A DNA stretch of 64,000 nt, taken from contig CAZEKH010000002.1 of NCBI GenBank assembly GCA_964512925.1, positions 122,505-186,504 on the forward strand, given 5' to 3'. Positions within the stretch are counted from its first letter, which is position 1, and every line of letters begins with the position of its first letter. The position numbers and the translations under genes were made by a program. This DNA is from an uncultured Candidatus Saccharibacteria bacterium. Its GTDB lineage: Bacteria > Patescibacteriota > Doudnabacteria > UBA920. Of this stretch, positions 3,754-41,426 are shown one piece after another. The notes beneath the pieces are model-generated. The model had not been told where the DNA came from, did not search any database, and was given only the letters and a program-made list of their open reading frames with translations.

Positions 3754-3792
3754 TCCCTCCCCTTCTGAGGGGAGGGATAAAGGGAGAGGTTG
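3754..3792. repeat. GC-rich palindromic element, copy A (CCCTCCCC-ttctga-GGGGAGGG ... AGGGAGAGGTTG), intergenic
   Basis: A perfect hairpin plus the conserved GGGAGAGGTTG tail. Same family as the copies at 7387, 40077 and 41106. Confidence 0.7.
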
Positions 3793-3891
3793 TAGCCACA
3801 TTCGCAATCATTTGTAAATTCGTTTAATTCGCAAATTTTATAAATTATTTCAAACTTAGTAATATTTGTGGATTAGTAATTTGTGCATAAT

Positions 3892-4899
3892 ATGAAAATT
3901 ATTTTTTACGAATCAACGCCTGAAGACGAAAACTCGTTTCGCGATATTTTTAAAAGCATCGAAGGCTTGGAAATGGTCTTTTGTTCGGACGTTTTGTCGG
4001 ATAAAAACATCTCTTTGGCCAAAGACTGTAGCGCGGTTTCAGTCTTCATCGGCTCCAAAGTTACAGCAGAGCTGATTAGCCAACTACCTAACACAAAAAT
4101 CATAACCACCCGCTCAACAGGCTATGACCACATAGATAAAGACGCTGCCAAACAAAAAAATATCGTGGTTTGCAATGTTCCAGCCTACGGCTCAAGGACA
4201 GTGGCGGAATTTACTTTTGCTCTCATACTCGGACTTTCCCGCAAAGCTTTTCTAGCCTACCGACAGCTAAAAGACCAGCATAATTTTGACATTTCCCATT
4301 TTGAAGGCTTTAACCTCCAGGGTAAAACCCTGGGTGTGGTTGGCACGGGCAGGATTGGTCAAAATGTGATCAAAATAGCCAAAGGCTTTGAGATGAATGT
4401 CCTGGGCTTTGACCTGTTTCCAAAAAACGAGCTTGAAACTTCTTTAGGTTTTAAATATTCATCTCTAAACGAACTGCTCGCAGGCTCAGACATCATCACC
4501 CTGCACGTTCCATATACCAAAGATACGCACCATCTGATCAACTCCACCAACATCAAATCCGTCAAACCCGGCGCTTTACTCATCAACACGGCCCGCGGCG
4601 AAGTAGTCGAAACGGACGCTTTACTTTATGCGCTCAAACATAAAATCCTGTCCGGGGCGGGGCTGGATGTTTTGGAAGGCGAACGAGAACTCAAGGACGA
4701 AATGGCTTCCATCCTTCAGGAAAATGTTGCCAATGTAAAAATCTTGCTTGAAGACCATATGCTGATGGACGATTCCAATGTGGCCCTCACCCCGCATATC
4801 GCTTTTTTTACCAAGGAAGCCAAAAAAGAAATCTGCCAAACCACGGCAGACAACATTGCAAATTTTTTCAAAAACCAACCGCAAAATTTAGTCGCTTAA
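3892..4899 (+). CDS. D-isomer-specific 2-hydroxyacid dehydrogenase (D-lactate/glycerate dehydrogenase-like)
   Basis: NAD-binding motif GVVGTGRIGQ and the catalytic region are typical of the family. The ATG at 3892 is preferred over the upstream GTG. Confidence 0.8.
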   Translation: MKIIFYESTPEDENSFRDIFKSIEGLEMVFCSDVLSDKNISLAKDCSAVSVFIGSKVTAELISQLPNTKIITTRSTGYDHIDKDAAKQKNIVVCNVPAYGSRTVAEFTFALILGLSRKAFLAYRQLKDQHNFDISHFEGFNLQGKTLGVVGTGRIGQNVIKIAKGFEMNVLGFDLFPKNELETSLGFKYSSLNELLAGSDIITLHVPYTKDTHHLINSTNIKSVKPGALLINTARGEVVETDALLYALKHKILSGAGLDVLEGERELKDEMASILQENVANVKILLEDHMLMDDSNVALTPHIAFFTKEAKKEICQTTADNIANFFKNQPQNLVA

Positions 4900-4903
4900 A
4901 AAA

Positions 4904-4937
4904 GAAGGGCACCCTCTATACAAAGAGGGTGCCCTTC
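4904..4937. repeat. Perfect 14-bp-stem GC hairpin (gaagggcaccctct/agagggtgcccttc); REP-like rather than a sense terminator
   Basis: The T-run follows the hairpin only on the minus strand, whereas both flanking genes are on plus. It shares the GAGGGTGCCC core with the CCCTCCCC elements. Confidence 0.6.
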
Positions 4938-4948
4938 TGGCAAAAAAG

Positions 4949-6220
4949 ATGCAAACACACAAAATCAAAAATTTTAACCGCTTATCAATAACACCGGAAA
5001 GAAAAACCCTTTTAAAGCTGGCTGAGACCGCGCTTTTGGCCATTGATACCGAATCAGCGGTTAAAAAAAATGTCAGCCTGAAAAATGGTATTTTAAAAAT
5101 CGGCAAAAAACAATTTACCCTCTCGCACATTGACCGGGTATTTGTCATAGGATTTGGCAAGTCATCAAGCTCAGCGGCTTTGGCATTGGAACAAATTTTG
5201 CAAAACTATATCACTGACGGCGTTGTGGTGTCCTTGGAAAAAGCCCCTTGCAAAATCATCAGGTGCTACGAAGGCACCCACCCTTTGCCGTCTATGCAAA
5301 ATGTGGTTGCTGCCGAGGAAATGGCAAAAATGACTTCCGATCTAACAAAAAAAGACCTGGTCATTAACCTAATCTCCGGCGGAGGCAGCGCTCTTTTGTG
5401 CTGGGACAAAGAGGAACTTTTAGCCTGCACCAAAGCATACAATGACTTTTTAACTGTCGGGCAAAACATCAACGAGCTAAACTTGGTCAGAAAGCATCTA
5501 TCCAAAGCCAAAGGCGGAGGTTTGGCGCAGATGCTCTATCCTGCCAATGTCATCAGCCTAATTTTTTCCGATGTGCCGGGAAATCATTTTCCGTCCGTTG
5601 CTTCCGGCCCCACCTATCCCCCTACCACAAATATGTACGAGGCTAAAACCATACTGGAAAAATACGGCTTTTCGGGATATAAACTCCTGCCGCACCCGGA
5701 TGATAAAAACTATTTTAAAAATGTCTATAACTATCCCGTAGTTTCCAATCTCACGGCTCTGGATAAGATGAAAGAAAAGGCCGAGGAATTGGGTTTTTCA
5801 GTGAAAATTTTAACTGACGAATTTTATGGTCAAGCAGAAGAGCTTTTAGAGCTGATAAGAAAAAACGCCAAAAAAAATACCGTGCTTTTAGCCGGCACTG
5901 AAATAAAAGTGGTGGTCACAAAAAAAGACGGCAACGGCGGCAGGTGCCAATACTTAGGAATGGCGGCTTTATGTGATTTTCTACAAGACGGAGAAACACT
6001 GCTGTCTCTGGCAACCGACGGACTGGATAATTCCGACTGCGCCGGAGTTATCGTTGACCACGGTTCCTATAAACGCGCCGAAAACCTAAAACTTAGTCCT
6101 AAAGACTATTTAGAAAATTTTAAAGGCTATGACTTTTTTGAAGCGTTGGGCTCAGAACAAATCTTCACCGGGCCTACCGGCGCCAATGTGTCAGACCTTT
6201 TGATATTTTTTAAAAGTTAA
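4949..6220 (+). CDS. Glycerate 2-kinase (MOFRL/DUF4147 family)
   Basis: 423 aa. The overall architecture and the GGGSALL motif match hydroxypyruvate-reductase-type glycerate kinases. Confidence 0.75.
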   Translation: MQTHKIKNFNRLSITPERKTLLKLAETALLAIDTESAVKKNVSLKNGILKIGKKQFTLSHIDRVFVIGFGKSSSSAALALEQILQNYITDGVVVSLEKAPCKIIRCYEGTHPLPSMQNVVAAEEMAKMTSDLTKKDLVINLISGGGSALLCWDKEELLACTKAYNDFLTVGQNINELNLVRKHLSKAKGGGLAQMLYPANVISLIFSDVPGNHFPSVASGPTYPPTTNMYEAKTILEKYGFSGYKLLPHPDDKNYFKNVYNYPVVSNLTALDKMKEKAEELGFSVKILTDEFYGQAEELLELIRKNAKKNTVLLAGTEIKVVVTKKDGNGGRCQYLGMAALCDFLQDGETLLSLATDGLDNSDCAGVIVDHGSYKRAENLKLSPKDYLENFKGYDFFEALGSEQIFTGPTGANVSDLLIFFKS

Positions 6221-6299
6221 CCCACTTGTCATTGCGGAAAGCCTCAACGACCTGTCCGCCATAGCTTTAAGCGAAGGGAGGAAGCAATCTCAATAAATG

Positions 6300-7655
6300 C
6301 TAAAACAGCGAAACTTGCAAAGGTTTTTTTAAAAATTTCTCCCGTTCTTTTTCTGAAAATATTTCAATTTTTCCAAACTGTCCATCATACCCGCCTTCCA
6401 CCTTCACCTTTCCGCTTCTTACTCGCAAAATTGCTTCAGCCACTGCCTCGTTTGAAATCTGAATAATTTGTTCCTTATTTAAATCCAACAAAATCTGAAA
6501 TTCACTAACTCGCTCACTCTCTAACTCTCTACTTCTCTCTCCCAGCATTTGTTCATAGAACGATGTAACTTTTTTGCTTTGCACTCCCACTCCATATACT
6601 TCAGCTATTATCTCTTCCAAAGGGATCACGTTTTTAAAAGGCACCGCACGCTTTGGCACAAAACCATATTGACGTGTAGCCAGTTCTTCAACTCTGCTCA
6701 AAACTCCGACAAGGAGTTTTTTTCCGCAAACCGGGCACAAGCCGCCCAGTTTTTTTGTTTTAGGCGGCAAACAAGAAAATTTACAATCCCGATGCCCATC
6801 CAAATGGTATTTTCCTTCTTCCGGAAAAAATTCCAAAGTATATAAAAATTCTTTCGGATTTTTATTTTTTATAATGCGGACGATTTCTGCATAAGACAGT
6901 TTTTTCTCATCTATTTCAAACACATTGGCTTCACGGCCAATCTTTCGAAGCGAATGGGCATCGCTGTTGGAAACCAAAGAGTATTTATCCAGTTCCGCTA
7001 TCTGCCAATTCATTTTCGGGTCACTGGAAAGTCCGGTTTCTATGGCAAAAATATGTTTAGCCTCCGTGCCAAAAGCTTCCTCAATGGTATTAAATCCAGA
7101 CAGCGAACCAAACACGCCAAAATGCGGAGTCCAGGCGTGGGCTGGTATTACTTCCGCATTTTCATCCGCTTCTTTAACTATTTTTACCAGGTCATCACAA
7201 TGCACACCCATTATAGGCCGGCCGTCGCTTTTCAAATTTGCCCCAACTTTTTCCAGGCCTTTGATAATTTTATCCGCCGCTTCAAATGACGGAACCAAAA
7301 TCATATTGTGCACCCTTCTAACCTTGTCTCCCTGTTTGTAGATCGAGGACACCTCCCCTGTGATCATAAAAAGCGCCTGTATTTTACCCTCCCCTGACGA
7401 GGGGAGGGTGCCCCGATGGACATCGGGGCGGGAGAGGTTGGGGGGGAGTTTTGTTTTCAATCTATATAACCCTTCCCTCTCTTCCTCCAAATGTTCTTTC
7501 AATTCCAAAAGCCATTTCGGATGTGTAAAATCGCCAGTACCAATGACTGAAATCCCCTTCTTCTCAGCCCATAAAGCAATGTTAGGTGGAGTTAAATCAT
7601 GACTGCAAGCCCGAGAGTATTTACTATGAATTTGTAAATCCGCGATGATTCTCAT
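6300..7655 (-). CDS. PHP-domain protein with Zn-ribbon, endonuclease Q-like; carries an in-frame palindromic insertion
   Basis: N-terminal PHP motif (IADLQIHSKYS...AHAWTPHFG) and a CPVCGKK zinc ribbon. Residues PDVHRGTLPSSGEGK are encoded by element copy B. Confidence 0.6.
   Translation of the reverse strand: MRIIADLQIHSKYSRACSHDLTPPNIALWAEKKGISVIGTGDFTHPKWLLELKEHLEEEREGLYRLKTKLPPNLSRPDVHRGTLPSSGEGKIQALFMITGEVSSIYKQGDKVRRVHNMILVPSFEAADKIIKGLEKVGANLKSDGRPIMGVHCDDLVKIVKEADENAEVIPAHAWTPHFGVFGSLSGFNTIEEAFGTEAKHIFAIETGLSSDPKMNWQIAELDKYSLVSNSDAHSLRKIGREANVFEIDEKKLSYAEIVRIIKNKNPKEFLYTLEFFPEEGKYHLDGHRDCKFSCLPPKTKKLGGLCPVCGKKLLVGVLSRVEELATRQYGFVPKRAVPFKNVIPLEEIIAEVYGVGVQSKKVTSFYEQMLGERSRELESERVSEFQILLDLNKEQIIQISNEAVAEAILRVRSGKVKVEGGYDGQFGKIEIFSEKEREKFLKKPLQVSLF
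7387..7448. repeat. GC-rich dual-hairpin palindromic element, copy B, inside the CDS
   Basis: ccctcccct-gacg-aggggaggg tg ccccgatg-gac-catcgggg cgggagaggttg. The reading frame stays open through the element. Confidence 0.7.
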
Positions 7656-7766
7656 AATTTTCTACTAAATACGAAAGGAACGAAATACTAAATTATTCCT
7701 TTTCGTACTTTAGTTTTTTAGTATTTAGTAGTTCTATTATATCATTTAATGTGATAAAATAGAGGT

Positions 7767-8543
7767 ATGAACAACTCACAATATTTAAAAGTCGCCATCT
7801 CATCGGTTAAGCAAAACAGCGCTTTGTTTAAAAAATATTTTGGCAACATCAAATCTGAAAACAAAAATCATAACATTCGCGACTTTGTCACCAAAGTGGA
7901 CAAACAGATAGAAGCGAGGATTAAGTCGGTGCTTAAAAAAAACTTCCCCAGTCACAAAATTGTGGGCGAAGAATTGGGGATCGATGCGGTTTTGGAAAAT
8001 GATTTTGTTTGGATCATTGACCCAATTGACGGAACCTCTAACTACATCCACGGCTTGCCTTTTTGTTGCATCTCCCTGGCTTTATGGAAATATAACCAAC
8101 CGATCCTGGGAGTGGTATATAACCCCATTTTAGGGCAGCTATATTTTGCCGAGCAAAAACGCGGCGCTTTTTTAAACAACAAAAAAATAAAAACATCAAA
8201 TACATCGGTACTGGAAAAATCTTTCGCCGGTTTTGGCTGGGGCAGAAACAGAACAAAAGCATTAAAATATTTTCCTCAGGCAATCCATAAACTAAACAAA
8301 GTCCGGGTTCTTGGCTCAACCGCTTTGGAAATTTGCCTTGTGGCTTCTGGCGTGTATGATTTAAGGCTCGATTTTGAAGCTAAACTTTGGGACTTTGCGG
8401 CTAGCGCAGTCATCCTAAAAGAAGCCGGTGGAAAAATCACCGACATTTACGGAAAAAATATCAACCTAAATTCAATCTCCATCCTCAGTACTAACGGTAA
8501 AATCCACAACCAAATTTTAAAACAATTTAAAAAACCCTCATAA
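7767..8543 (+). CDS. suhB: Inositol monophosphatase family protein
   Basis: WIIDPIDGTSNYIHG motif and IMPase-like length. Confidence 0.8.
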   Translation: MNNSQYLKVAISSVKQNSALFKKYFGNIKSENKNHNIRDFVTKVDKQIEARIKSVLKKNFPSHKIVGEELGIDAVLENDFVWIIDPIDGTSNYIHGLPFCCISLALWKYNQPILGVVYNPILGQLYFAEQKRGAFLNNKKIKTSNTSVLEKSFAGFGWGRNRTKALKYFPQAIHKLNKVRVLGSTALEICLVASGVYDLRLDFEAKLWDFAASAVILKEAGGKITDIYGKNINLNSISILSTNGKIHNQILKQFKKPS

Positions 8544-8556
8544 GGGTTTTTTAAAT

Positions 8557-9291
8557 TTAGACCATTTTTTCCGCTACCAGCAGATCCTCCGGGCTGTTAA
8601 CCCCCAAAACTTCTTTTGGCTCAATAGGCAAACTTTCTACTTTCAAATTCTGTTTGATCGCCAGCTCCAAAAGGTCGGTTAAATAGTATTCTCCTTGGGC
8701 GTTTTTATTTTGAAGTTTGTCAATATTCTCCCATAGCCATTTGGTTTGAAACATATAAATGCCCGGGTTAACCTCGCGGATTTGCTTTTCAGTTTCGGAA
8801 CAATCTTTGTATTCCGTAATTTTTTTTATCTTCCCCTCCCCATCCCGGACGATCCTGCCATAATTCTTCAAGGAAGAAAAATGCTGGTCAAAATTTTCAG
8901 GCTTTGCCGTAAACATTGTGATGATATTTTTTTCTTGGATATGTTTCTTGATCAGCTTTTTAAGGCTAGGAGCGGAGATGAACGGCATATCGCCATATAA
9001 AACCAAAACATTCTCGGCTTTCACTTTGTATTTTGCCGCCTTAACCGCGCTGCCTGTCCCTAGCTGTTTTTCCTGCACAGCATAAGTATATTTTTCGCCT
9101 AAAAACTGCCTGACCAGCTCTTTTTTATAACCCACCACCAAAACCGGCTGAGCTGTTAGCTCAATCTTTTGAACTTCTTCCAATAAATACAAAATCAAAG
9201 GCTTGTCTTTTACCGAAATTAAAACCTTAGGAAGTTGCCCTCCCATTCTTTTACCCTGCCCCGCCGCAAGAATAACAATTTGATTGGTCAT
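8557..9291 (-). CDS. Sugar-1-phosphate nucleotidyltransferase, GlmU N-terminal (uridyltransferase) domain only
   Basis: ILAAGQGKRMGGQLPKVL and GEYYLTDL match the GlmU pyrophosphorylase domain. No LbH acetyltransferase repeats are present. Confidence 0.7.
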   Translation of the reverse strand: MTNQIVILAAGQGKRMGGQLPKVLISVKDKPLILYLLEEVQKIELTAQPVLVVGYKKELVRQFLGEKYTYAVQEKQLGTGSAVKAAKYKVKAENVLVLYGDMPFISAPSLKKLIKKHIQEKNIITMFTAKPENFDQHFSSLKNYGRIVRDGEGKIKKITEYKDCSETEKQIREVNPGIYMFQTKWLWENIDKLQNKNAQGEYYLTDLLELAIKQNLKVESLPIEPKEVLGVNSPEDLLVAEKMV

Positions 9292-9302
9292 AGTAGTTTT
9301 CG

Positions 9303-9340
9303 CAAATATACAAATAGATTCAAATATACAAATTTTAATC
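9303..9340. repeat. Left arm of an inverted repeat (two 13-mers CAAATATACAAAT separated by 5 nt)
   Basis: Reverse-complementary to 9548..9580. Together they bracket a ~205-bp segment carrying a gene fragment. Confidence 0.6.
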
Positions 9341-9355
9341 CTTATTGTTTTGATT

Positions 9356-9546
9356 TAATATTCTTCTAAATTTAAATATAATTCTCTAATAAACTTAAGT
9401 TTTAAAGCTTTTAACTCTTCCGCAAAAGCAGCTTGAATATATTTTTCGGCATGCCAAACCCGACATTATTAAAAACTTTAAAAGCAGCTCCCACAATCTT
9501 ATGGCTTAATTCTTTGTAGATATACTTGTCAGTCATGATTTGTATA
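9356..9546 (-). pseudogene. Frameshifted, truncated GxxExxY-family (PD-(D/E)XK-like) gene fragment
   Basis: MTDKYIYKELSHKIVGAAFKVFNNVGFGMP, then after a 1-nt shift AAFAEELKALKLKF, matches the conserved N-terminus of GxxExxY proteins. Only about 60 codons remain. Confidence 0.4.
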
Positions 9547-9547
9547 T

Positions 9548-9580
9548 TTGTTCAAATTTGTATATTTGGGATTACTACAT
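9548..9580. repeat. Right arm of the inverted repeat (ATTTGTATATTTG x2)
   Basis: Reverse complement of 9303..9340. Confidence 0.6.
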
Positions 9581-9901: not shown

Positions 9902-9908
9902 ATGTCTT

Positions 9909-10886: not shown

Positions 10887-10958
10887 AGATTTTGCACGAA
10901 TGACAGATTATACAGATCTTACAAATATAGACATTTGTACTTTTTGTAAAATTAGTAA

Positions 10959-12152: not shown

Positions 12153-12176
12153 ATAGCGACACTAATACCCGAATTT

Positions 12177-12218
12177 CACACGAATAACACGAATTAGTAT
12201 CATTCGTGTTCTATTCGT
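12177..12218. repeat. Imperfect 17-bp inverted repeat (CACACGAATAACACGAAT / ATTCGTGTTCTATTCGT) between tdh and kbl
   Basis: Read directly from the sequence. It lies between the two cistrons of the operon. Confidence 0.5.
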
Positions 12219-12237
12219 AAATTGGGGTCGGTTAAAT

Positions 12238-13425
12238 TTAAAATTTAATTAATATTTTCGGATTTTCAAGCATCATCTTTTCAAACTTTTCTTTACTATA
12301 ATCTCCAATATTTAGAATTGTGCCATTGCCGTTATTTAGCAAAACATTATACAGCCCATCCGCAATTCTGTTTTGTTTGTCTTCCAAAAGTTTTTGCGTG
12401 GTCTCCCAAGTCTCCCATATCTGCCTGCCAGCTACGCAGTGCATTGTTATGCCCTTCATCACTAGTTTGTTATAGTTTTCAAAAACAAAATCCCCACTTT
12501 TTAAGCCAAACAATATCACATCACCGCCCCGCCTAACTGAAGCAATAGCATTGTTTACCGAGTCGTTAAACCCAGCCATTTCAAAAGCCACATCTACACC
12601 AAGGCCATTCGTCAGCTTTAAAATTTCTGACACAATTTCTTTATTGTGATAATACCCTGTCTGATTCTTAATTCCTAATTCTTCATTATTAATTCTCAAT
12701 ACATGGTCAACACCCAACTTTTTCCCCATTTCCACAGCCTTTTCATTCGGTTCAACTCCAATGATAGTTTTTGCGCCCATACCCTTCAAAATCAAAACCA
12801 AAAACTGAGCAATGGGTCCAAGACCAAAAATTGCTACAGTTTTACCCCTAACATCCACTTTACTTGCGGCGTGAACAGCATTGCCAAAAGGCTCGTGAAG
12901 TACCGCGACCTCTTCCCGGATTTTACCGGTATCTACTTTCCACAAAACCTGCGCCGGCACTTTTGCGTACTGGGCAAACCCGCCGTCCACGCTAATTCCT
13001 AAAATCTTTTCATTGGTACAAACATTCTTCTGTCCGTTTTTGCACTGAAAACATTCGCCACAAACCACATGACTCTCACACGCCACCATATCCCCAACAT
13101 TCACATCTTTAACATTTGATCCTATATCTTTTACTTCGCCAAAAAACTCATGCCCGAGAATACGGTATGTTTTTTTATTTGTGTCATTCGTGTGCAATTT
13201 GTGTATTGGTGTCGCTTCTTGGTCTATTGACCCTAATATTGCCTCTTTAAACGCCATTCTATTCCAAATCCCGCGGTCTGTCCCGCAAACGCCAGCGTAG
13301 TGTACTTTTAAAATAACTTTGTCTTCATCCCCCTCGCCCAAAACCGGCTCAGGTATTTCTCTTAGCTCAAAACCCTTAGTCGTTTCCCAATCTGTTTTAC
13401 TTTTATCGAATATTAATGCTTTCAT
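12238..13425 (-). CDS. tdh: L-threonine 3-dehydrogenase (Zn-dependent MDR)
   Basis: GHEFFGEV zinc-ADH motif and a Rossmann GxGxxA motif. Lies upstream of kbl in the same operon. Carries an N-terminal insertion of about 20 aa. Confidence 0.8.
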   Translation of the reverse strand: MKALIFDKSKTDWETTKGFELREIPEPVLGEGDEDKVILKVHYAGVCGTDRGIWNRMAFKEAILGSIDQEATPIHKLHTNDTNKKTYRILGHEFFGEVKDIGSNVKDVNVGDMVACESHVVCGECFQCKNGQKNVCTNEKILGISVDGGFAQYAKVPAQVLWKVDTGKIREEVAVLHEPFGNAVHAASKVDVRGKTVAIFGLGPIAQFLVLILKGMGAKTIIGVEPNEKAVEMGKKLGVDHVLRINNEELGIKNQTGYYHNKEIVSEILKLTNGLGVDVAFEMAGFNDSVNNAIASVRRGGDVILFGLKSGDFVFENYNKLVMKGITMHCVAGRQIWETWETTQKLLEDKQNRIADGLYNVLLNNGNGTILNIGDYSKEKFEKMMLENPKILIKF

Positions 13426-13520: not shown

Positions 13521-13521
13521 G

Positions 13522-15348: not shown

Positions 15349-15425
15349 TTAATTCACCAATTACGAATTTTACCAATATTACTAATAAATTTGTATAATT
15401 AGTAATATTTGTAATTCGTGCATAA

Positions 15426-16184
15426 TTATAATTTATTCCAGTTAAACTCAAAGATCATTTTTTGGGTTTGAAATATTGCTTGGTTTTGTATCACTACGCC
15501 CATAGGCTCTTCTTTTTCGTCCAGGCTGATGTGAGCAACTTTGCCGGCATAGATTATTTCGTGAGTAGATCCGACTTTTACCCCAGACCCAGAGACAGTG
15601 GATGGAATCGGCATATACTTTCTTTCATCCAAACCCATAAGCTGCCCCCCTTCGCCCAAAGAAATTATTTTTACCCCGATTTTTTTCGCAATTCTTTTTT
15701 TACTAAAGTCCGGCATATCCGCATACACGCTTTTTCTGTCCTTGGTGGTAGATGAGGAATACAGATAATATTCTTTTTCACCACAAGCCAAAACGTCTTC
15801 CAAAATTTGTTTTATGCCTTTAGCTCCCTCATAGAGTTTGACTGTGGGTTTGCCTCCCTGTTTTTCAAACAAAGTTTTTATATATGGCAGGCTGTTTTCC
15901 ACATTTTTTCTGACTTCGTCCAAATCTTCCTTTTTTTGGTCTATGGCAGAAAGCAGCTTTTCCGGTTGTTCCGCAACAAAATATTGCTTACTCTCTTTGT
16001 TAAAATAAGAAACTATACCCATTCCGATAAGCGACTTTAAAATGTCATACGAAGTGCCGCGGTTAACTTTGGATTTAAAAGCAATCTCTCGAACCGAAGA
16101 AGGACCTAACTCTACCAAGGCCAGGTAAACTGAAATTTCTTTTTCTGACAGGCCAAAATTTTTCAAAATTATCTGAATTTCCAT
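15426..16184 (-). CDS. TrmB-family transcriptional regulator
   Basis: N-terminal winged HTH (LSEKEISVYLALVELGPSSVREIA) and a TrmB-like C-terminal domain. Confidence 0.65.
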   Translation of the reverse strand: MEIQIILKNFGLSEKEISVYLALVELGPSSVREIAFKSKVNRGTSYDILKSLIGMGIVSYFNKESKQYFVAEQPEKLLSAIDQKKEDLDEVRKNVENSLPYIKTLFEKQGGKPTVKLYEGAKGIKQILEDVLACGEKEYYLYSSSTTKDRKSVYADMPDFSKKRIAKKIGVKIISLGEGGQLMGLDERKYMPIPSTVSGSGVKVGSTHEIIYAGKVAHISLDEKEEPMGVVIQNQAIFQTQKMIFEFNWNKL

Positions 16185-16914: not shown

Positions 16915-16918
16915 ATAG

Positions 16919-17036
16919 TGGGCAGCTACCTACTTTTGCGCTAGCATTCACTAGACTATCATCGGCCAAGATACGTTTGACTTCCGAGTTCGGGATGGGA
17001 TCGGGTCGTTCCTTACCTTGAAATGCCACCCGCCAC
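16919..17036 (-). rRNA. rrf: 5S ribosomal RNA
   Basis: The reverse complement contains the conserved CCCGATCCCATCCCGAACTCGGAAGT 5S core. Confidence 0.8.
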
Positions 17037-17120: not shown

Positions 17121-17235
17121 CGCGTTGTCTAATATAAATTGAATATTGGGTACAGCAAATTTGAAAAGTTGAACCGCTCAGAATGGCTGATATAAAATCA
17201 AAGCCACAAATCGCTAGTCAAAATAGATTAAAACT

Positions 17236-20868
<3,633 letters not shown>

Positions 20869-33074: not shown

Positions 33075-33104
33075 AAACTTTACTGATTACTGATTTACTG
33101 ACAA

Positions 33105-34175: not shown

Positions 34176-34193
34176 AGTATAAAAATTTTAAAA

Positions 34194-34625: not shown

Positions 34626-34626
34626 A

Positions 34627-36378
34627 TTATTCCGTAGTTACTCTCATCACTTCGTCCAGAGTGGTCTCGCCCCGAATAATTTTTATTAAACCGTCCTGCT
34701 TCATTGTTATCATCCCCAAAGAAGCCGCGTGCTCGTACATTTTTCTTGAAGAAGATTTTGACAGCACTAATTCCTGTAGTTCAGCGTCAACTGGCAAAAC
34801 CTCATAAATGCCCATACGACCTGCATAACCTGAATTGCCGCATTTTTCACAGCCATGTCCTTTAAAAGTCTTTAGAGTCGCCATATCCAGTCCTTCCAAA
34901 TACTCGTCCGGAACCCCTTTGAGCCCGTCTCGGATTTCTTTTTCGATTCCAGGCAAAATCGGCACTTCCCCTCTGCAGTTAGAACAGATTTTTCTTACCA
35001 ATCTTTGAGCCATCACCACATTGATTGAGGAAGCGAGTAAAAAAGGTTCAATGCCCATATCAATCATTCTCGGCATCGCCCCAATGGAGTTATTGGTATG
35101 CAAAGTGGAAAATACCAAATGCCCGGTCAAGGCAGCGTGCACTGCCAGCTCAGCTGTTTCTTTGTCTCGAATTTCACCCACCATCACCACATTGGGATCT
35201 TGCCTAAGTATGCTCCGAAGACCGGCCGCAAAAGTCAGACCGATTTCCGGATTAATCTGGCTTTGATTTATCCCTTCAATAAAATATTCCACGGGGTCTT
35301 CCAAAGTGATAATGTTGACAGTCGGGGAATTTAAAATGGATAAAATTGCATAAAGCGTGGTAGATTTTCCGCTACCGGTCGGTCCGGTAATTAGAAAAAT
35401 ACCGTGAGTTTTTTTAATGTTTTCTTTTATCCATACCAAAGCGCGCCCGCGTATGCCCAGCTGTTCCAAAGTCGGAACCGAACCGGTCTTATCCAAAATA
35501 CGCATCACAATTTTTTCCCCGTAAATCAAAGGTAAAATGGAAACACGCAAATCAACGGATTTTTTTCCTACATCCATATGAAATCTTCCGTCTTGCGGCA
35601 ACCTGGATTCGTCAATTTTTAAATTGGATAAAATTTTAATTCTTGTAATAATCGCCGCGTGGACGTTTCTAGGCAACATCAAAGATGTATGCAAAATTCC
35701 ATCTATGCGGTATCTGACTCGCACATCTTTTTCCGAAGGTTCAATGTGTATATCTGAAGCATTACCCTCAATGGCATTAGTTAAAATAACTTCCACAATC
35801 TTTATAATCGGTGCTTCTTCAATGACCTGGGGAATATTGGATTTTTCAGCTTCCTGAGCAGACTTTAAACCCCCGCTTTCTTTGGTCTGAATATCTTTTA
35901 GAGCATCGCCCACTACTTTTTTTAGGTTCTTTTTCTTTCCGGAGGCAACTTCAACACCGCTCTCTGAGGCTAAATAAAGCTGAATTTGAAGATTTTGTTT
36001 TTGGCCCAAAAATTCCAAGGCTTCCAGAGCGGACAAATTTCCAGGGTTGGTTATGGCAACCTTTAAAATGCGGTCGCGATTTTCAAACGGAATAAAATTA
36101 TAAAAATTCACCGACTCCGGAGGAATGAGATTTAAAACAGCAGGAGGAATCGTAATTTGTTTTAAATCCACATAAGGTATGTTAAAAAAGGCGGCTTTAG
36201 CTTTGGCTAAATCCTCTTCTTCGATTATTTTTCGCGCAAGAAGCAGCTGGCTCACATTTTGTCCGGTTTCTTTTTCCAGCTTCTCCAGCTGTAAAATCGT
36301 ATCCTCGCTGACAAAACCATTGCTGACTAAAAATTGCCCGAAAGTTTGCGCTACGTTAGTTTTAGCAGCGGTTTCCAT
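34627..36378 (-). CDS. pilB: Type IV pilus assembly ATPase (GspE family) with an N-terminal GSPII_E_N domain and tetracysteine motif
   Basis: Walker A ITGPTGSGKST and CSNC...CEKC. Confidence 0.9.
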   Translation of the reverse strand: METAAKTNVAQTFGQFLVSNGFVSEDTILQLEKLEKETGQNVSQLLLARKIIEEEDLAKAKAAFFNIPYVDLKQITIPPAVLNLIPPESVNFYNFIPFENRDRILKVAITNPGNLSALEALEFLGQKQNLQIQLYLASESGVEVASGKKKNLKKVVGDALKDIQTKESGGLKSAQEAEKSNIPQVIEEAPIIKIVEVILTNAIEGNASDIHIEPSEKDVRVRYRIDGILHTSLMLPRNVHAAIITRIKILSNLKIDESRLPQDGRFHMDVGKKSVDLRVSILPLIYGEKIVMRILDKTGSVPTLEQLGIRGRALVWIKENIKKTHGIFLITGPTGSGKSTTLYAILSILNSPTVNIITLEDPVEYFIEGINQSQINPEIGLTFAAGLRSILRQDPNVVMVGEIRDKETAELAVHAALTGHLVFSTLHTNNSIGAMPRMIDMGIEPFLLASSINVVMAQRLVRKICSNCRGEVPILPGIEKEIRDGLKGVPDEYLEGLDMATLKTFKGHGCEKCGNSGYAGRMGIYEVLPVDAELQELVLSKSSSRKMYEHAASLGMITMKQDGLIKIIRGETTLDEVMRVTTE

Positions 36379-36386
36379 AAGCTTTT

Positions 36387-36683
36387 TTATTTAATCTCGT
36401 CTTCAAACGGGATCACCAAATCCTGCTCAGCAGTTCCCAAATCATTATCTAAGTCAATTTTAGGAAAATTGACTTGTTTAAAATTAAAAGAAGAATTTTT
36501 AAAAGCTTTATCTATATCAAAAGACGCTCCTTGGGGCAAAATTTCCTCATTTTGTACATTTGCCCCTTCCGTTGCCAGCTCTGGAGCGCTGCCGCCCTGA
36601 AAAAGACCCTTATACAAAACTATGCCGCTGATCAAAAAACATACGGCAATAACTAGAATTTGAATGATATTTTTTTTCTGCAT
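36387..36683 (-). CDS. Small membrane-anchored protein in the pilus operon (PilP-like position)
   Basis: One N-terminal TM helix and 98 aa. The position between pilO and pilB is the only support. Confidence 0.4.
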   Translation of the reverse strand: MQKKNIIQILVIAVCFLISGIVLYKGLFQGGSAPELATEGANVQNEEILPQGASFDIDKAFKNSSFNFKQVNFPKIDLDNDLGTAEQDLVIPFEDEIK

Positions 36684-36695
36684 AACATTTTGTTG

Positions 36696-37325
36696 TTAGG
36701 GGGCGAAATAATAAGTTTTAAAATTAATCCTAAGCCCTAACTGCCCTTTCCCGGAAGGTGTCATATCCATCCCTGTGATATCCATCAGCCTGCCGGAGTT
36801 TTCTATTTTCTGAAGGAATGATTTGAGTTGAAAAAAATCTCCATAAGCATTGACATTGCAAGATAAAGTTTTCAAAGTTCTCTTGGCATAAAACGGATCA
36901 GTGATAATTTTTTGATCATTGCCATACACCTGCTCTTCTTTGGCAGTAACCGCCACATCGCCTACAGTCACACCTGACTCATTTGCCAAGTTTTGTACTA
37001 AAATTTGAACTTTTGTCCGACGACTGTCTAAAGGCAAGGCTTCGTCTAACATTGCCAACTCAGCGGGAAATTTGCCCATCTTGGCAATCAATCCTTTTAA
37101 AGAAGCCGTTTGCGCCTGGATAGTCCCGCGTTCCTTGACTAAAACTGCCAATTCCGCGCGCTTTTCAGCCAATTCCGCGCGCTTAGGCTTGATCATAAAC
37201 CAAAAAAACAACGCAATAAAAATCAAAACCGCCAGAATTTGAATATTCGTGGATTTAAAAGATCTAACTTCCACGGAAGTTGCAGATTCTTTAGCCGAAC
37301 TTTTTGGCAGGTTAAAATTCATCAT
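36696..37325 (-). CDS. pilO: Type IV pilus assembly protein PilO-like
   Basis: TM helix, coiled coil (AELAEKRAELAVL) and a periplasmic domain. Gene order pilM-N-O. Confidence 0.6.
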   Translation of the reverse strand: MMNFNLPKSSAKESATSVEVRSFKSTNIQILAVLIFIALFFWFMIKPKRAELAEKRAELAVLVKERGTIQAQTASLKGLIAKMGKFPAELAMLDEALPLDSRRTKVQILVQNLANESGVTVGDVAVTAKEEQVYGNDQKIITDPFYAKRTLKTLSCNVNAYGDFFQLKSFLQKIENSGRLMDITGMDMTPSGKGQLGLRINFKTYYFAP

Positions 37326-37333
37326 ATAAAAAT

Positions 37334-37921
37334 TTATTTGCTTGGCTGGGCAACAAGCCCCTCTTTTCTCAAAATCTGGGAATTAAAATTCATTCTAAAA
37401 TTTACATTTAAATTGCTCTGTCCCAACTTTTCAATTTTATTGATAGCCCCGATTTTAACATTTGAAAAGCTTCGCATAAACTCTAAAGTGTCAAAAAGCT
37501 GGAGCAATTTGTCCAATTCCTGGTTATCTTTCAAATTCACGCTCAAAGCCAAACTGCCATCCTCAGCAACCCGGATATACAAATAATGCGACCCTTTAAT
37601 GCTGAGGTCTGCGATAGCCTTAAAAAAATTGGAAAAATATGGATGCGAAGCGCTGAGATTTTGATAGGCTTTCAGCTGTCCCTGCCTGGATAAAAATTCT
37701 TTCCGCTGGGCCATATTTAAAGCCAGCTTTTTTTCCTGTGCCACCGCGGCTTTGGTTTTCGGAATTTCATTTGTTACTTTTTTTGTATCTAAAAATATCC
37801 AGAGATAATAAGCCACAAACAGCAAGGCAATAAAAGAAACTATTTTTAGTCCGGAGCCCCGGATTTTTAAAAATAAGTCTTCAGTCGAGCTTTTTTGTTT
37901 TAATAAATTGATTTGTGCCAC
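37334..37921 (-). CDS. pilN: Type IV pilus assembly protein PilN-like
   Basis: MAQINLL N-terminus and a single TM helix. Directly follows pilM. Confidence 0.65.
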   Translation of the reverse strand: MAQINLLKQKSSTEDLFLKIRGSGLKIVSFIALLFVAYYLWIFLDTKKVTNEIPKTKAAVAQEKKLALNMAQRKEFLSRQGQLKAYQNLSASHPYFSNFFKAIADLSIKGSHYLYIRVAEDGSLALSVNLKDNQELDKLLQLFDTLEFMRSFSNVKIGAINKIEKLGQSNLNVNFRMNFNSQILRKEGLVAQPSK

Positions 37922-37947
37922 AAAATTTTGATTTCTTTATTTTGAAA

Positions 37948-38976
37948 TTATTCTGCTCTTAAAGCGAGGCCGATTGCCACAGGTAAATTGCGGGAATAAC
38001 GTTTTAAAACCTGCTCGGCTGAGACTGAAAACGCCACATTTTTCAACGGATTGCCCAATTCCACTGGCATTTTCAGATCCGCAAAAAAATCAATAATGCC
38101 TGGCATATTGCTTCCGCCGCCAGCCAAAATTACCTTATCTAAGCGGATATCCTGCGATACATAAATCGTTAACAGCTGCTTTACCTCATTTTTCACAATA
38201 TTTAACACCGGCTTAACCGCTTCGGGGATAAAAGAAGGGCCATTGATGCCAAAATCTTTCTTAAACTGTTCGGCTCGGCTATGATTTATTCCTAAAGTTT
38301 CTGCAATTTTTGAAGTAATGGTTTCTCCTCCCACATTCAGATTGCGACTCAATTTTAAAACTCCATTTTCAATAATATTCAAACCAGTACTCTTGGCGCC
38401 TATATCTATTATAACACAATTTATCTTTTCTCCCCCGATCAGACTGCGGATTAAAGCCAAAGCTTCAATCTCAGCCGCCTCAGGATGCAAACCAGATATT
38501 TCAAAAAGCTTGCTATAATTCTCTTTAATCTGCTTAGGCACGGCAATCAGCAGAATTTTTTGGCTGGATGTTTGCGCATTTGTATCTGTAACAGTCCAAG
38601 ACAAGTCTATTTCATCCAATGCCAATGGCACGTATTTTTTGGCTTCATACTCCACAGCCCCGTCAAGCTCTTTATCGTTCATCATCGGCAGTTCAATCAC
38701 TGAAGAGAAAACCGCGCTATTGGGAAAACTAATCACAGATCTTTGAGCGCTGATACCCGCTTTTTTTATAAGGGATTTGATCAACTCTGCCATCCTGGCT
38801 AAAGATTCCGGATCGTTTTTTCCGCTTAAAGCTTCCGGAATATTGACTATCCCATAACTCTCCAAAACCCTCTCTCCCGAAGACTTCTGTCCCACCTGGG
38901 CGAGTTTAATGCTGGAGGTTCCGATATCAACCCCTAAAACAGAGCTATGTTTTTTAAACAAACCGGCTAAAAACAT
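37948..38976 (-). CDS. pilM: Type IV pilus assembly protein PilM (actin-like ATPase)
   Basis: VLGVDIGTSSIKLAQV phosphate-1 motif of FtsA/PilM. Confidence 0.85.
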   Translation of the reverse strand: MFLAGLFKKHSSVLGVDIGTSSIKLAQVGQKSSGERVLESYGIVNIPEALSGKNDPESLARMAELIKSLIKKAGISAQRSVISFPNSAVFSSVIELPMMNDKELDGAVEYEAKKYVPLALDEIDLSWTVTDTNAQTSSQKILLIAVPKQIKENYSKLFEISGLHPEAAEIEALALIRSLIGGEKINCVIIDIGAKSTGLNIIENGVLKLSRNLNVGGETITSKIAETLGINHSRAEQFKKDFGINGPSFIPEAVKPVLNIVKNEVKQLLTIYVSQDIRLDKVILAGGGSNMPGIIDFFADLKMPVELGNPLKNVAFSVSAEQVLKRYSRNLPVAIGLALRAE

Positions 38977-39108
38977 TTTAAGATAAGATGAATATTTTTT
39001 TTAGTTTCTGAAACTGAATTTTACCTTTAAATCATAATATATTTTTGCCTTATTGTCAAAAAATCCCCTTGCGGGGATAAGTCTGTTTGTCTTTTTTTAA
39101 TATATAAA

Positions 39109-39184
39109 TGGTGGACCCTACCGGGCTCGAACCGGTCACCCCCACATTGCAAATGTGGTGCTCTACCAAATGAGCTAAGGGCCC
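39109..39184 (-). tRNA. tRNA-Ala (anticodon TGC)
   Basis: The reverse complement GGGCCCTTAGCTCA...TTTGCAA...GGTTCGAGCCC...CCACCA folds as a cloverleaf with the G3:U70 identity pair and an encoded CCA. Confidence 0.9.
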
Positions 39185-39214
39185 TAATCATTCTGAATTA
39201 AATGCTCAATATGA

Positions 39215-39439
39215 CTATACGGCTCCCGAAGGGAGCATATTAAACAACCATAAAACCGACAACACACACATCGCAAAGCCAAAAAGTTTCCACCAAGTAT
39301 AAGTTCCGGAAGCCATCCCGCCACCAAGATATTTTTCAGCAAAATCAATCTTTCCGGTAATTTGATCAGTCAAATATACCGCATATTTCATAAGCAGAAT
39401 ACCGGCTGCAAATAAAAGTGGGGAAAAAATGAAGCGCAT
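39215..39439 (-). CDS. Small hydrophobic ORF between the two tRNAs
   Basis: 74 aa with two predicted TM helices. No other support. Confidence 0.3.
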   Translation of the reverse strand: MRFIFSPLLFAAGILLMKYAVYLTDQITGKIDFAEKYLGGGMASGTYTWWKLFGFAMCVLSVLWLFNMLPSGAV

Positions 39440-39488
39440 ACTTTATTTTAACTGCTTAACATTTACAATTTTTACTCTTTGACCGTTA

Positions 39489-39565
39489 TGGTGGGCGTAC
39501 CAAGATTCGAACTTGGGACCTCGTCATTATCAGTGACGCGCTCTAACCAACTGAGCTATACGCCC
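39489..39565 (-). tRNA. tRNA-Ile (anticodon GAT)
   Basis: The reverse complement GGGCGTATAGCTCAGTTGGTTAGAGC...CTGATAA...GGTTCGAATC...CCACCA. Encoded CCA. Confidence 0.9.
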
Positions 39566-39674
39566 TAAAACCTTTTGACAATAAAGCAATTCTAACAAAT
39601 ATGGCTTATTTTGACAATAGAAAAGGACTCAAAATTTTTGAATATTTAACCATAAATGCTACAATATCAGCATT

Positions 39675-41426
39675 ATGCTCAATACTTTAACGAAAATAAA
39701 TACCAATATCCTTAGAGAAATTGAAGACGAAAAAACCCTGCGCCAAACTTCGGAGGTGTTCTTGCTATTTTCTATGGGCAGCCAGTTTGACCACCTCATA
39801 AAGCAAAAGTTAGATGCTTTAGGTGTTTTTTGTTTAGTGGCAGACCCAGCTAAAATAACCGCCGTAGATGTTAAAAAACTCCGACCGATGGGTATAATCC
39901 TCTCCGGCGGCCCTGCTTCTGCTTACGAATACCCGCCTTTTGACGGAAAAATTTTTGATCTGGGCATTCCGGTTTTTGGCATTTGCCTGGGTTTTCAGAT
40001 GTGGGCTTACCATATCGGGGTCAAAGTCAGTCTCTCAGACAAGCGCGAATTCGGCACCCATAGTTTTTCATTATTTCCCTCCCCAGGCGTGGGGAGGGTG
40101 CCCGTAGGGCGGGAGAGGTCGAACGTGAAAAACCTAAATAATAATTTACTTTTCTCCTCTCTCCCCAAAACTTTCAATGTCCTGGAAAGCCACGGCGACA
40201 AGATCGCGGCAGACAAAAAGCTAACTCTCCTTGGCGCTACGGACAATGCCCCAGCTTCCGCCGCCCAATACAAACATCTTTTTGGCGTACAGTTCCACCC
40301 GGAAGTTACGGAAACCGAATATGGGGACAAGATTTTTGAAAATTTTGTGTTTAAAATCTGCAAAGCCAAGGACCGCTTTCCGGCCAAGTCCGAAGCGGTT
40401 AAAAAAATTGAAGCCCTCAAAAAACAAATTGCCGGCAAAAAAATCCTGCTTGCCCTTTCCGGCGGCACCGACTCCTCTGTGGTTGCCTATCTTCTAAAAC
40501 ACGCAGCTCGCGTTAACCCCCCCTCTTTTTTAAAGAGGGCGCAGGTGGGAGTTAAAATTCAAGCAATTTATATCAAAGGCATAGACCGCCCGGACGACGA
40601 AAAAAATGTCCTAAAATATTTTGGCAAACAAAAATGGATCTCGCTAAAGATAGTTGATGCTAGCAAAGAGTTTCTAACAGCCTTAAAGGGTAAAACTCAA
40701 ATGCACGAAAAGCGTCTGGCTATGAGAGCGGTCTATAAAAAAATTCTGGAAGGAGAATGTAAAAAAATTAAGGCAGACTATTTAGCCCAGGGCACGCTTT
40801 ATACGGACATTTCGGAAAGCGGACACGGCTACAGCACGGGCGCAAAAAAAGCCCAGATCAAGCTACACCACAATGTTAATTTAAATTTTAATATCCCGGA
40901 ACTTTGCCCGCTTCTCGACTGTGTCAAAGACACAGCCAGAAACATTGGCCGGGAAATTGGAGTGTCCGAAGAACTTTTGGTTCGCCATCCTTTCCCAGGT
41001 CCAGGGTTGATAGTGCGCATAGAAGGCGAAGTAACCAAAGAAAAACTGGAAGTTGCCAGGAAGATTGACGGCATATATATAGAAGAGCTAAAAAAATATA
41101 AATTATCCCCTCCTAATATAGGAGGGGTGTCCCCCAGGGGGGGACGGGGTGGTATGCGCCACACCCTCTACGACGAGATCTGGCAGGCCGGCGCAGTGGT
41201 AACCGCTTCCCAAGTTACCTGCACCAAAGGCGACGGCGCCGCAGAGGGGCACCTGGTTGCTCTATGGGCTGTCTGGTCGGTTAACGGCTTTACTGCCAGA
41301 GCCGCAGAACTTCCGTATGAATTTTTAAAAAAAGTCGCCCAAAGAATAACAAACGAAGTAAGGGAAGTCGGAGGTGTAGTATACCGTATAAGTGATAAAC
41401 CACCCGTCACTATAGAATGGGGATAA
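39675..41426 (+). CDS. guaA: GMP synthase (glutamine-hydrolysing), carrying three in-frame palindromic-element insertions
   Basis: GATase domain (GICLGFQ, HPE), ATP-PPase SGGTDSS and the C-terminal dimerisation domain. 583 aa against a typical ~520 aa. The extra G/P/R-rich peptides coincide with the elements at 40077, 40514 and 41106. Confidence 0.9.
   Translation: MLNTLTKINTNILREIEDEKTLRQTSEVFLLFSMGSQFDHLIKQKLDALGVFCLVADPAKITAVDVKKLRPMGIILSGGPASAYEYPPFDGKIFDLGIPVFGICLGFQMWAYHIGVKVSLSDKREFGTHSFSLFPSPGVGRVPVGRERSNVKNLNNNLLFSSLPKTFNVLESHGDKIAADKKLTLLGATDNAPASAAQYKHLFGVQFHPEVTETEYGDKIFENFVFKICKAKDRFPAKSEAVKKIEALKKQIAGKKILLALSGGTDSSVVAYLLKHAARVNPPSFLKRAQVGVKIQAIYIKGIDRPDDEKNVLKYFGKQKWISLKIVDASKEFLTALKGKTQMHEKRLAMRAVYKKILEGECKKIKADYLAQGTLYTDISESGHGYSTGAKKAQIKLHHNVNLNFNIPELCPLLDCVKDTARNIGREIGVSEELLVRHPFPGPGLIVRIEGEVTKEKLEVARKIDGIYIEELKKYKLSPPNIGGVSPRGGRGGMRHTLYDEIWQAGAVVTASQVTCTKGDGAAEGHLVALWAVWSVNGFTARAAELPYEFLKKVAQRITNEVREVGGVVYRISDKPPVTIEWG
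40077..40122. repeat. GC-rich palindromic element, copy C, in frame in the guaA GATase domain
   Basis: ccctcccca-ggcg-tggggaggg tg cccgtagggc gggagaggtcg. Encodes PSPGVGRVPVGRER. Confidence 0.7.
40514..40552. repeat. GC-rich hairpin insertion in the guaA ATP-PPase domain (ccccctcttt-ttt-aaagagggcg caggtgggag)
   Basis: Encodes RVNPPSFLKRAQVG, which is absent from the canonical GuaA sequence between the SGGVDSS motif and the next beta-strand. Confidence 0.55.
41106..41153. repeat. GC-rich dual-hairpin element, copy D, in frame near the guaA C-terminus
   Basis: cccctcct-aatata-ggagggg tg tccccc-a-ggggggga cggggtgg. Encodes SPPNIGGVSPRGGRGG. Confidence 0.65.

Follow-up and report, generated by a model that had tools for sequence, protein, structure and literature searches.

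Some 30 years after they became known, repeats of the BoxC/PIT/triplex-motif class still have neither a function nor a mechanism of spread assigned to them, and they have been regarded as intergenic sequences. Holder et al. (2015; PMC4666352) described a class II (purine-motif) intrastrand triplex motif of the same three-block design as the repeats reported here, and their paper equates this motif with BoxC of Escherichia coli and with the PIT elements of Hoyne and Maher. The pattern called TMECO reads CCCTCNCCC N3-6 GGGNGAGGG N3 GGGNGAGGG, and 3610 copies are present in 262 proteobacterial genomes. Copies in strain MG1655 are always intergenic, occur also as inverted pairs and have no link to transposons; the E. 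coli elements have neither promoter nor terminator activity, TMECO loci are associated with local genomic instability, and such triplexes do not form in RNA (PMC4666352). In our counts the E. coli family occupies a median of 18 places per genome and is present in 5418 of 5426 genomes; the one E. coli locus that was read (L149) carries an inverted pair. In this work we describe repeats of this design in a 64-kb stretch of contig CAZEKH010000002.1 (hereafter, the window), from a bacterium of the Candidate Phyla Radiation (CPR), where four of five copies lie inside two conserved genes, guaA and endoQ. The five elements are probably small, non-autonomous dispersed repeats of the BoxC/PIT/TMECO class, spread by a copy-and-insert process and read through in frame.

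The G+C content of the window is about 41%, and 84% of the genome DNA is protein-coding. That the DNA comes from a CPR genome had been supposed in an earlier note on this stretch, and the best matches of both host proteins are named Candidatus Doudnabacteria. The open reading frame (ORF) at 39675-41426, on the plus strand, is guaA, which encodes a GMP synthase of 583 aa (matches to PDB 1GPM and 3TQI, E about 1e-83). The ORF at 6300-7655, on the minus strand, is endoQ, which encodes an endonuclease Q homologue of 451 aa (match to PDB 5ZB8, E = 9e-46). Both frames run uninterrupted by stops across their elements. Five GC-rich elements were found in the window, against a chance expectation of none: one intergenic (3754), one in endoQ (7387) and three in guaA (sites 1, 2 and 3, at 40077, 40521 and 41107). 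The positions pointed out in the earlier note are thus confirmed. The common sequence proposed there for the whole family is genuine in three copies, in which CCCTCCCC-N6-GGGGAGGG (3755, 7387 and 40077; 0.00 expected from 100 shuffles) is each time followed by GGGAGAGGTYG; it does not extend to the elements at 40521 and 41107, which have the architecture alone in common with the others and belong to other subfamilies.

The constant feature across genomes is a structural rule: a pyrimidine-only arm, its purine complement, a second loop (loop 2), and then a G-rich mirror of the purine arm, in which each A of the purine arm is faced by either A or T. Thus, AAAGAGGG is mirrored by GGGAGTTA, AGGAGGGG by GGGGTGGT, and AAGAGGGGG by GGGGGAGTT. 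Such pairings agree with the purine-motif triads (G.G-C, and A.A-T or T.A-T) of class II triplex motifs (PMC4666352). In the five window copies the stems are perfect pyrimidine/purine (Y/R) duplexes of 8-10 bp closed by loops of 3-6 nt; the third block satisfies 8 of 8 mirror triads at 40521 and 41107, and has one mismatch each at 3754, 7387 and 40077. The match is likewise complete at site 1 of the relative P0002 (TCCTCTCC / GGAGAGGA / AGGAGAGG, 8/8) and at site 3 of P0007 (CCCCCTCTT / AAGAGGGGG / GGGGGAGTT, 9/9). When 41 Y/R hairpins from 15 CPR loci were surveyed, the mirror arrangement accounted for 14 perfect third blocks, against one for a direct repeat and one for a block on the wrong side of the hairpin. 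In conventional DNA folding predictions for the window copies (-6.7 to -21.4 kcal/mol) the hairpins form, and the third block stays unpaired. A covariance model cannot represent the mirror relation, which does not consist in base pairs; elements were therefore detected by a purpose-written finder for the hairpin and the mirror rule. At the first settings the finder returned 5 hits in the window and 0.0 in 30 shuffles; a relaxed C-arm threshold added the element at 40521, and the hits collapse into the five elements. In 180 kb of Doudnabacteria DNA there were 28 hits, against 0.1 in shuffles.

A dual hairpin had been regarded in the earlier note as the defining design of the family. The second hairpin is an optional, hypervariable expansion of loop 2, whose length is 3, 7, 12, 18 or 21 nt among window copies, and the Y/R hairpin with its mirrored G-rich third block is what stays constant. 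Where present (7409-7429, 40099-40110 and 41128-41145 in the window; loci L123, L150, L152 and L155 in relatives), the loop-2 hairpin has a constant base, e.g. GTCC...GGAC, and a tip that is different in every copy, is always a perfect palindrome, and often ends in a GNA triloop. The variable tip could be a trace of the element being cut and rejoined. Stems co-vary while the encoded peptides differ, as do PSPGVGRVPVGRERS, SSPGLERKSAKGGQERS and PSSGEGRVGEAGERS, all found at GuaA site 1. The conserved feature is the nucleic-acid architecture, and no evidence was seen for selection on the peptides. The purine-motif rule, together with the failure of such triplexes to form in RNA (PMC4666352), suggests that the architecture matters in DNA rather than in RNA. 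The copies in endoQ and purA are antisense to the host gene, and orientation relative to overall GC skew shows a weak bias (24:13). In the neighbourhood of guaA (the window and loci L121-L128) the purine-rich strand of most elements is the guaA-sense strand, whatever the direction of the host gene.

The five elements are all solo copies, with no inverted pairs among them, and are given here in plus-strand coordinates. Element A (3754-3790) lies 34 nt past the enolase gene. It consists of a C-arm (3754-3763, TCCCTCCCCT), a loop (3764-3767), a G-arm (3768-3777, AGGGGAGGGA), a loop 2 of sequence TAA (3778-3780) and a third block with one mismatched triad (3781-3790, AGGGAGAGGT); its DNA hairpin has a predicted energy of -11.8 kcal/mol (z = -3.05). 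Element B (7387-7438), within endoQ and antisense to it, has arms at 7387-7395 and 7400-7408 separated by a loop at 7396-7399, a loop 2 (7409-7429) holding the second hairpin GCCCCGAT-GGAC-ATCGGGGC, and a third block with one mismatch (7430-7438, GGGAGAGGT). Its fold is the most stable (-21.4 kcal/mol, z = -5.78), and the host protein gains about 21 aa, encoded roughly by 7386-7448. Element C (40077-40136), at guaA site 1, is a 60-nt in-frame insert corresponding to codons 135-154. Its C-arm (40077-40084), loop (40085-40090) and G-arm (40091-40098) are followed by a loop 2 (40099-40110) containing the mini-hairpin GCCC-GTA-GGGC, by a third block with one mismatch (40111-40118, GGGAGAGG), and by a tail (TCGAAC...) that reaches about 40136. 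Element D (40521-40554), at site 2, represents a net insert of about 30 nt, and is made up of a C-arm (40521-40528, CCCTCTTT), a TTT loop, a G-arm (40532-40539, AAAGAGGG), a loop 2 (40540-40546) and a third block with all 8 mirror triads (40547-40554, GGGAGTTA). Element E (41107-41153) is the core of the 60-nt in-frame insert at site 3. The C-arm (41107-41114, CCCCTCCT), the AATAT loop and the G-arm (41120-41127, AGGAGGGG) are followed by a loop 2 (41128-41145) containing the hairpin GTCCCCC-AGG-GGGGGAC, and by a third block, again with 8/8 triads (41146-41153, GGGGTGGT). A perfect 15-bp hairpin at 4903-4938 (-18.1 kcal/mol, z = -8), between two plus-strand genes, had also been listed as a relative, at 4904. 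It is not counted as such, since its arms are of mixed bases and not pyrimidine/purine, and a third block is absent; followed by TTTTTT on the minus strand, it looks like a minus-strand terminator acting on antisense transcription.

Compared with orthologues, the elements within genes are insertions that keep the frame. The guaA DNA of eight orthologues was aligned codon by codon with the window gene. A Doudnabacteria GuaA of 532 aa (P0012) has none of the three inserts, which measure 60, 30 and 60 nt at sites 1, 2 and 3, and account for the difference between 583 and 532 aa; GuaA is indeed longer than usual, as the earlier note had it, by 51 aa over this insert-free orthologue and not by about 60. 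The GuaA structures of E. coli and Coxiella lack all three inserts as well: alignment with 1GPM and 3TQI leaves gaps of 13 residues at site 2 and 21 residues at site 3, and extra residues at site 1. Translation of the guaA inserts yields the peptides PSPGVGRVPVGRERS, PPSFLKRAQVGV and SPPNIGGVSPRGGRGG, and the element at 7387 is read antisense by endoQ as PPNLSRPDVHRGTLPSSGEG. All inserts, in the window and in the eight relatives, are multiples of three and stop-free in the frame used. Over the five elements 21 of 30 frames are open, against 53% for random 42-nt frames. An independent Logan assembly encodes an identical GuaA protein, and the inserts are therefore not an assembly artefact. In an AlphaFold model of GuaA built from a 120-sequence alignment, with a mean predicted local distance difference test score (pLDDT) of 81, residues 139-155, 286-288 and 481-492 fall below 50. 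These are the three inserts, each flanked by confidently folded strands or helices; scores are low also at 379-395 and at the C-terminus. The insertions and the kept frame had been anticipated in the earlier note, which had also raised the question of whether the peptides map to surface loops.

The sites are also variable among relatives. We analysed 120 close GuaA orthologues (63-72% identical), counting as inserts internal segments of at least 7 aa. Lengths range from 525 to 607 aa, many proteins measuring 531-532 aa, and 53 of the 120 carry inserts. Three inserts in one gene, singled out as striking in the earlier note, are thus real, and less singular than they seemed, falling as they do at recurrent hot spots. 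EndoQ orthologues have a baseline of 421-430 aa, against 451 here; inserts were found in 62 of 120, and the extra segment of the window protein (LPPNLSRPDVHRGTLPSSG...) sits at the main variable position of the family. Inserts concentrate at three or four positions per protein, and are enriched in Pro (2.8-fold), Arg (about 2-fold), and Ser and Gly (1.5- to 2.4-fold). In a neighbour-joining tree carriers of one insert type are scattered and not monophyletic; P0001, P0002 and P0018, for example, share the site 1 element, yet form no exclusive clade. At GuaA site 2, other lineages (L123, L125, L126 and L127) carry (CAATCTC)x5, (GGAAGGTC)x3, and palindromes of 16 and 20 bp, all in frame. The recurrence must at least partly reflect a permissive loop, and not specificity for a DNA target.

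The core pattern is not confined to CPR bacteria. One genome per species was searched for CCCTCCCC-N4-8-GGGGAGGG-N2-30-GGGAGAGGT, and at least 119 stretches match. Hosts among the matches listed include Chloroflexota, Armatimonadota, Nostocales, Bacteroidota (Tidjanibacter, Alistipes), Saccharibacteria and other CPR bacteria, Clostridia, Planctomycetota and others; the pattern occurs also on 20 viral contigs. Chance matches in GC-rich genomes were considered and set aside: fewer than one is expected with uniform composition and 25 specified bases, against at least 119 stretches, and the loop 2 stems co-vary. A common short form reads CCCCTCCCC-loop-GGGGAGGGG-YYR-GGGGGAGAGGT. In the long form, loop 2 holds a second hairpin with co-varying stems and GNA triloops (TGCCCGTAGGGC, TGGCCGAAGGCC, TCCGCGAAGCGG), and in Tidjanibacter the long form is a near-identical match to element C (40077). 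In low-GC genomes many copies lie within long ORFs. Host genes confirmed by Pfam encode orotidine monophosphate decarboxylase (pyrF) and D-Ala-D-Ala ligase (ddl) in CPR bacteria, and PrmC, a Methyltransf_28 protein and an RluA-type pseudouridine synthase in Nostoc; copies in relatives lie inside purA, uvrC, pyrF, ddl and prmC. The suggestion that the family is new and restricted to one lineage has accordingly to be abandoned, as the class had been described (PMC4666352) and its core is found in many phyla.

Dispersal is documented by copies shared between unrelated loci. Within its 64 kb the window itself has one subfamily at three unrelated positions (3755, 7387 and 40077). Over its first 26 nt (CCCCTCCTAATATAGGAGGGGTGTCC), element E has an exact counterpart in the guaA gene of P0014, which encodes a protein only 69% identical to that of the window; the codons on either side are different, and the junction is displaced by two codons. 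A metagenome scan located the same 26-mer in uvrC, in a PGA_cap gene, in intergenic DNA and in an array of three 45-nt tandem units. At three of these loci the 26-mer makes up the left half of a composite of about 118 nt, in which a second motif stands in inverted orientation; nearly the same composite recurs at all three, each time between unrelated flanks. The same PGA_cap gene carries, in addition, the subfamily found at GuaA site 2 of P0002 and P0025. Inverted pairs were observed in the relatives L122, L150, L152 and L155, and the L122 contig has two copies of a unit of about 110 nt made of two inverted motifs, one in guaA and the other in a different gene. Identical, sharp-bordered copies in unrelated genes argue for spread by copy-and-insert.

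Other arrangements also occur. The tandem array (L154, 6530-6670, minus orientation), on a contig of 34% GC, has three 45-nt units that encode APPNIGGVSEGRGGF three times, and a Rikenellaceae locus (L010, 4280-4625) has three copies with a period of 156 nt. UvrC of L152 hosts several more Pro/Gly-rich inserts, e.g. NPSLEKEGKLRG... and TPPNLPFERGGMGPTPLLTKEGLGEV; guaA is therefore not alone among housekeeping genes in being hit more than once.

The repeat is thus defined by its structure, is multi-copy and sharp-bordered, is either present or absent at fixed codon positions, and occurs in many phyla; in CPR bacteria and Nostocales it sits inside conserved genes with the frame intact. How it spreads may be pictured as follows. 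Copying and insertion would be driven by a trans-acting enzyme, with DNA structure, probably that of single-stranded DNA, as the feature recognised. In a genome as gene-dense as this one, insertions into genes would be frequent, and those would survive whose length is a multiple of three, whose frame is free of stops and whose target is a tolerant surface loop. Surviving elements would be translated by the ribosome into disordered, Pro-, Ser-, Arg- and Gly-rich loops. Insertion would strike one small set of permissive loops time and again, and inserts would be lost again, which would result in the patchy pattern seen among orthologues.

Several points weigh against this explanation. Neither an insertion event nor a within-population pair of empty and filled alleles has been found, and comparison of filled and empty codon positions revealed no convincing target-site duplication at any junction. 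None of the 38 window ORFs is transposase-like in a Pfam scan, and no mobilising enzyme is among them. Occurrences at the same site could in part derive from ancient insertion and many precise losses, and not from repeated hits. A TMECO oligonucleotide forms a triplex in vitro, and none was detected in vivo (PMC4666352); the mirror block could thus serve, or result from, something else. That the inserts are translated we infer from the intact frames alone. Finally, the loci sampled are biased to guaA, and the proportions of coding and intergenic copies are therefore not genome-wide estimates.

A bolder version of the dispersed-repeat explanation can be advanced tentatively, and we regard it as rather doubtful. 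Triplex-motif repeats would form a single ancient, pan-bacterial and structure-defined mobile class, endowed with its own mobilising enzyme, and would be a major ongoing source of loops, specific to single lineages, in the housekeeping proteins of gene-dense CPR genomes. The mirror block would then be a feature recognised by the machinery, or would form a transient DNA triplex, and would be no by-product; the hypervariable palindromic tip of hairpin 2 would record cutting and rejoining of the element.

It might be argued that the elements are selected cis-acting signals located in genes, either pause sites for replication or transcription, recombination hot spots or mRNA structures. The co-variation of stems and third block in the face of changing peptides would fit such a role, and so would the identity of cores in genomes that differ by about 30% in the flanking codons; the latter is explained equally well by recent insertion from a master copy. 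The strand preference seen around guaA might be read in the same sense, as might the instability of TMECO loci, but the orientation bias relative to GC skew amounts to just 24:13, and the E. coli elements act neither as promoters nor as terminators (PMC4666352). Moreover, about half of the orthologues have no insert at each site, and site 2 is occupied also by unrelated palindromes and tandem heptamers. On balance, selected signals are an unlikely explanation.

Still less can be said for an origin in place, by replication slippage or template switching within hypervariable loops, with no mobile copies involved. The many unrelated repeat types hosted by GuaA site 2 in different lineages, and hairpin 2 tips that are hypervariable yet always palindromic, are what such processes might leave behind. 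They would not place identical elements of 26 to 118 nt, with sharp borders, in unrelated genes and genomes, nor the same core in many phyla, and simple strand switching makes inverted repeats and cannot make a mirror repeat. For the triplex-motif copies an origin in place, very improbable overall, is already contradicted.

Ribosomes are known to bypass the GC-rich byp elements of Magnusiomyces mitochondria and the gap in phage T4 gene 60, and GC-rich hairpins inside essential genes of an AT-richer genome (41% GC) call to mind a ribosome hopping over inserts that are not translated, a notion that is scarcely credible because every insert examined keeps the frame and is stop-free, which hopping would not require, while both orientations are tolerated and no matching take-off and landing codons were seen at the borders.

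Other readings were tried and discarded. Intrinsic terminators are excluded by the lack of a T run at any of the five elements. Mimicry of Shine-Dalgarno or anti-Shine-Dalgarno sequences is not supported, as the third block varies with the stem and keeps no GGAGG core, and start codons lie at no fixed distance from intergenic copies. Neither architecture nor context gives support to diversity-generating retroelements, integron attC sites or CRISPR repeats. At gathering thresholds, the Rfam matches in the window are confined to rRNA and tRNA, and none falls on an element.

Additional features of the window deserve mention. The 23S rRNA gene (17224-20855, minus strand) measures 3632 nt against a model of 2925 nt, about 700 nt being extra; three AT-rich inverted repeats (19886-19968, 20487-20570 and 17297-17370) have the appearance of insertion borders. 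The tRNA-Ile and tRNA-Ala genes are 18 kb distant from those for 23S and 5S rRNA, and the window contains no 16S gene (further spans, 16917-17033 and 39109-39565); the rRNA operon therefore appears to be split. A palindrome of 34-39 nt, TGTCAACTATGACACATATGTGTTATGTTTGACA, is found in three intergenic copies (58617-58655, 62424-62462 and 62565-62603), and looks like the operator site of a dimeric regulator. AT-rich inverted repeats of about 40 nt, with ATTCGTGT... and TTTGTATATTTG... motifs, flank genes or gene groups, as in the pairs 12155-12233 / 13177-13217, 9293-9333 / 9538-9578 and 10889-10929 / 15386-15426; they are a second intergenic repeat system, unrelated to the triplex-motif elements. 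Just downstream of guaA (42354-47075), genes for a ResIII-type helicase, a DUF3800 protein and an N6/N4 DNA methylase form a cluster that looks like a restriction-modification or defence island.

What is new here is the occurrence of BoxC-like repeats with an expandable loop 2, in frame, in housekeeping genes of CPR bacteria and Nostocales. The literature yielded nothing relevant on in-frame palindromic elements in CPR/Patescibacteria, and no description of in-frame triplex-motif repeats in genes of CPR bacteria or Nostocales, the Nostocales repeats of Elhai et al. 2008 lying outside the comparison. The triplex-motif architecture, with its co-varying mirror block, is tolerated in frame in guaA, endoQ, purA, uvrC, pyrF and ddl of CPR bacteria. 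Protein loops derived from palindromic elements are thereby extended beyond Rickettsia, and an explanation is offered for part of the length variation of these CPR proteins. The inserts also lengthen protein alignments obtained from metagenome-assembled genomes of these lineages. Since loop 2 measures 3-21 nt, and often has a hairpin of its own, searches that allow loops of 1-6 nt miss most copies, as do searches limited to intergenic DNA. Presence and absence at fixed codons make up a natural series, usable to date insertions, to measure loss, and to seek the mobilising gene by phylogenetic profiling.

A comparison with known repeats places the window elements among several families. Rickettsia palindromic elements (RPEs) are about 100-150 bp long and not known outside Rickettsia; they were reportedly presented by Ogata and co-workers in 2000 as small palindromic repeats residing in frame in conserved genes and translated as surface peptides. 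The likeness to RPEs proposed in the earlier note holds for behaviour: in both cases elements are in frame in conserved protein genes, at tolerated surface positions or loops, with a patchy presence. The elements described here differ in their size (34-60 nt), in the Y/R hairpin with mirror block, and in belonging to a family spread across phyla. Optional GC clusters are found in frame in a protein gene of yeast mitochondria, VAR1. Repetitive hairpin elements have been reported in sponge mitochondria (PMC2800124). These too are GC-rich hairpins that invade AT-rich, gene-dense genomes, and an in-frame location is possible; they are organellar, unrelated in sequence, and lack a third block of the triplex type. 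The recurrent G-quadruplex/triplex repeats of Methanomicrobiaceae, which are in equilibrium between hairpin, triplex and quadruplex and have no assigned function (PMC8044849), are also repeated and have G-tracts beside a complementary C-tract, but the C-tract is located 3' of the G-tracts, and the repeats are archaeal and all intergenic.

REP and REPIN sequences resemble the elements as short GC-rich hairpin repeats, often arranged as inverted pairs, and thought to be mobile as single-stranded DNA. In contrast to REPs, no GTAG or CGTC tag is found here, the 5' flanks (TTATTT, ATTTTA, ATTAT) having no common tag, four of the five copies are intragenic, and a mirrored third block is no feature of REPs. 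No RAYT (Y1 transposase) was detected among the 38 window ORFs scanned against Pfam, which represent 64 kb of the genome only. As to miniature inverted-repeat transposable elements, solo copies are devoid of terminal inverted repeats, and the composites of about 118 nt end in inverted motifs.

The closest relatives remain the BoxC/PIT/TMECO repeats. In both sets a C-rich arm is followed by a complementary G-rich arm and by an antiparallel second G-rich block, one mismatched triad being allowed; both are multi-copy and dispersed, include inverted pairs, and have no linked transposase. They differ in location and dimensions, as E. coli copies are intergenic with a loop 2 of 3 nt, whereas four of the five copies described here are intragenic and loop 2 spans 3-21 nt. 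They differ also in sequence, the arms being CCCTCNCCC there and CCCTCCCC, CCCCTCCT or CCCTCTTT here, and in the host, here a CPR bacterium. No window copy fits the strict TMECO pattern; an insert in another Doudnabacteria guaA (L124, 7592-7624), CCCTCTCCC-CCT-GGGAGAGGG-CCC-TGGTGAGGG, fits it in all but one base of the third block. By their architecture, the window elements thus appear to be members of the triplex-motif class, distinct from the E. coli subfamily.

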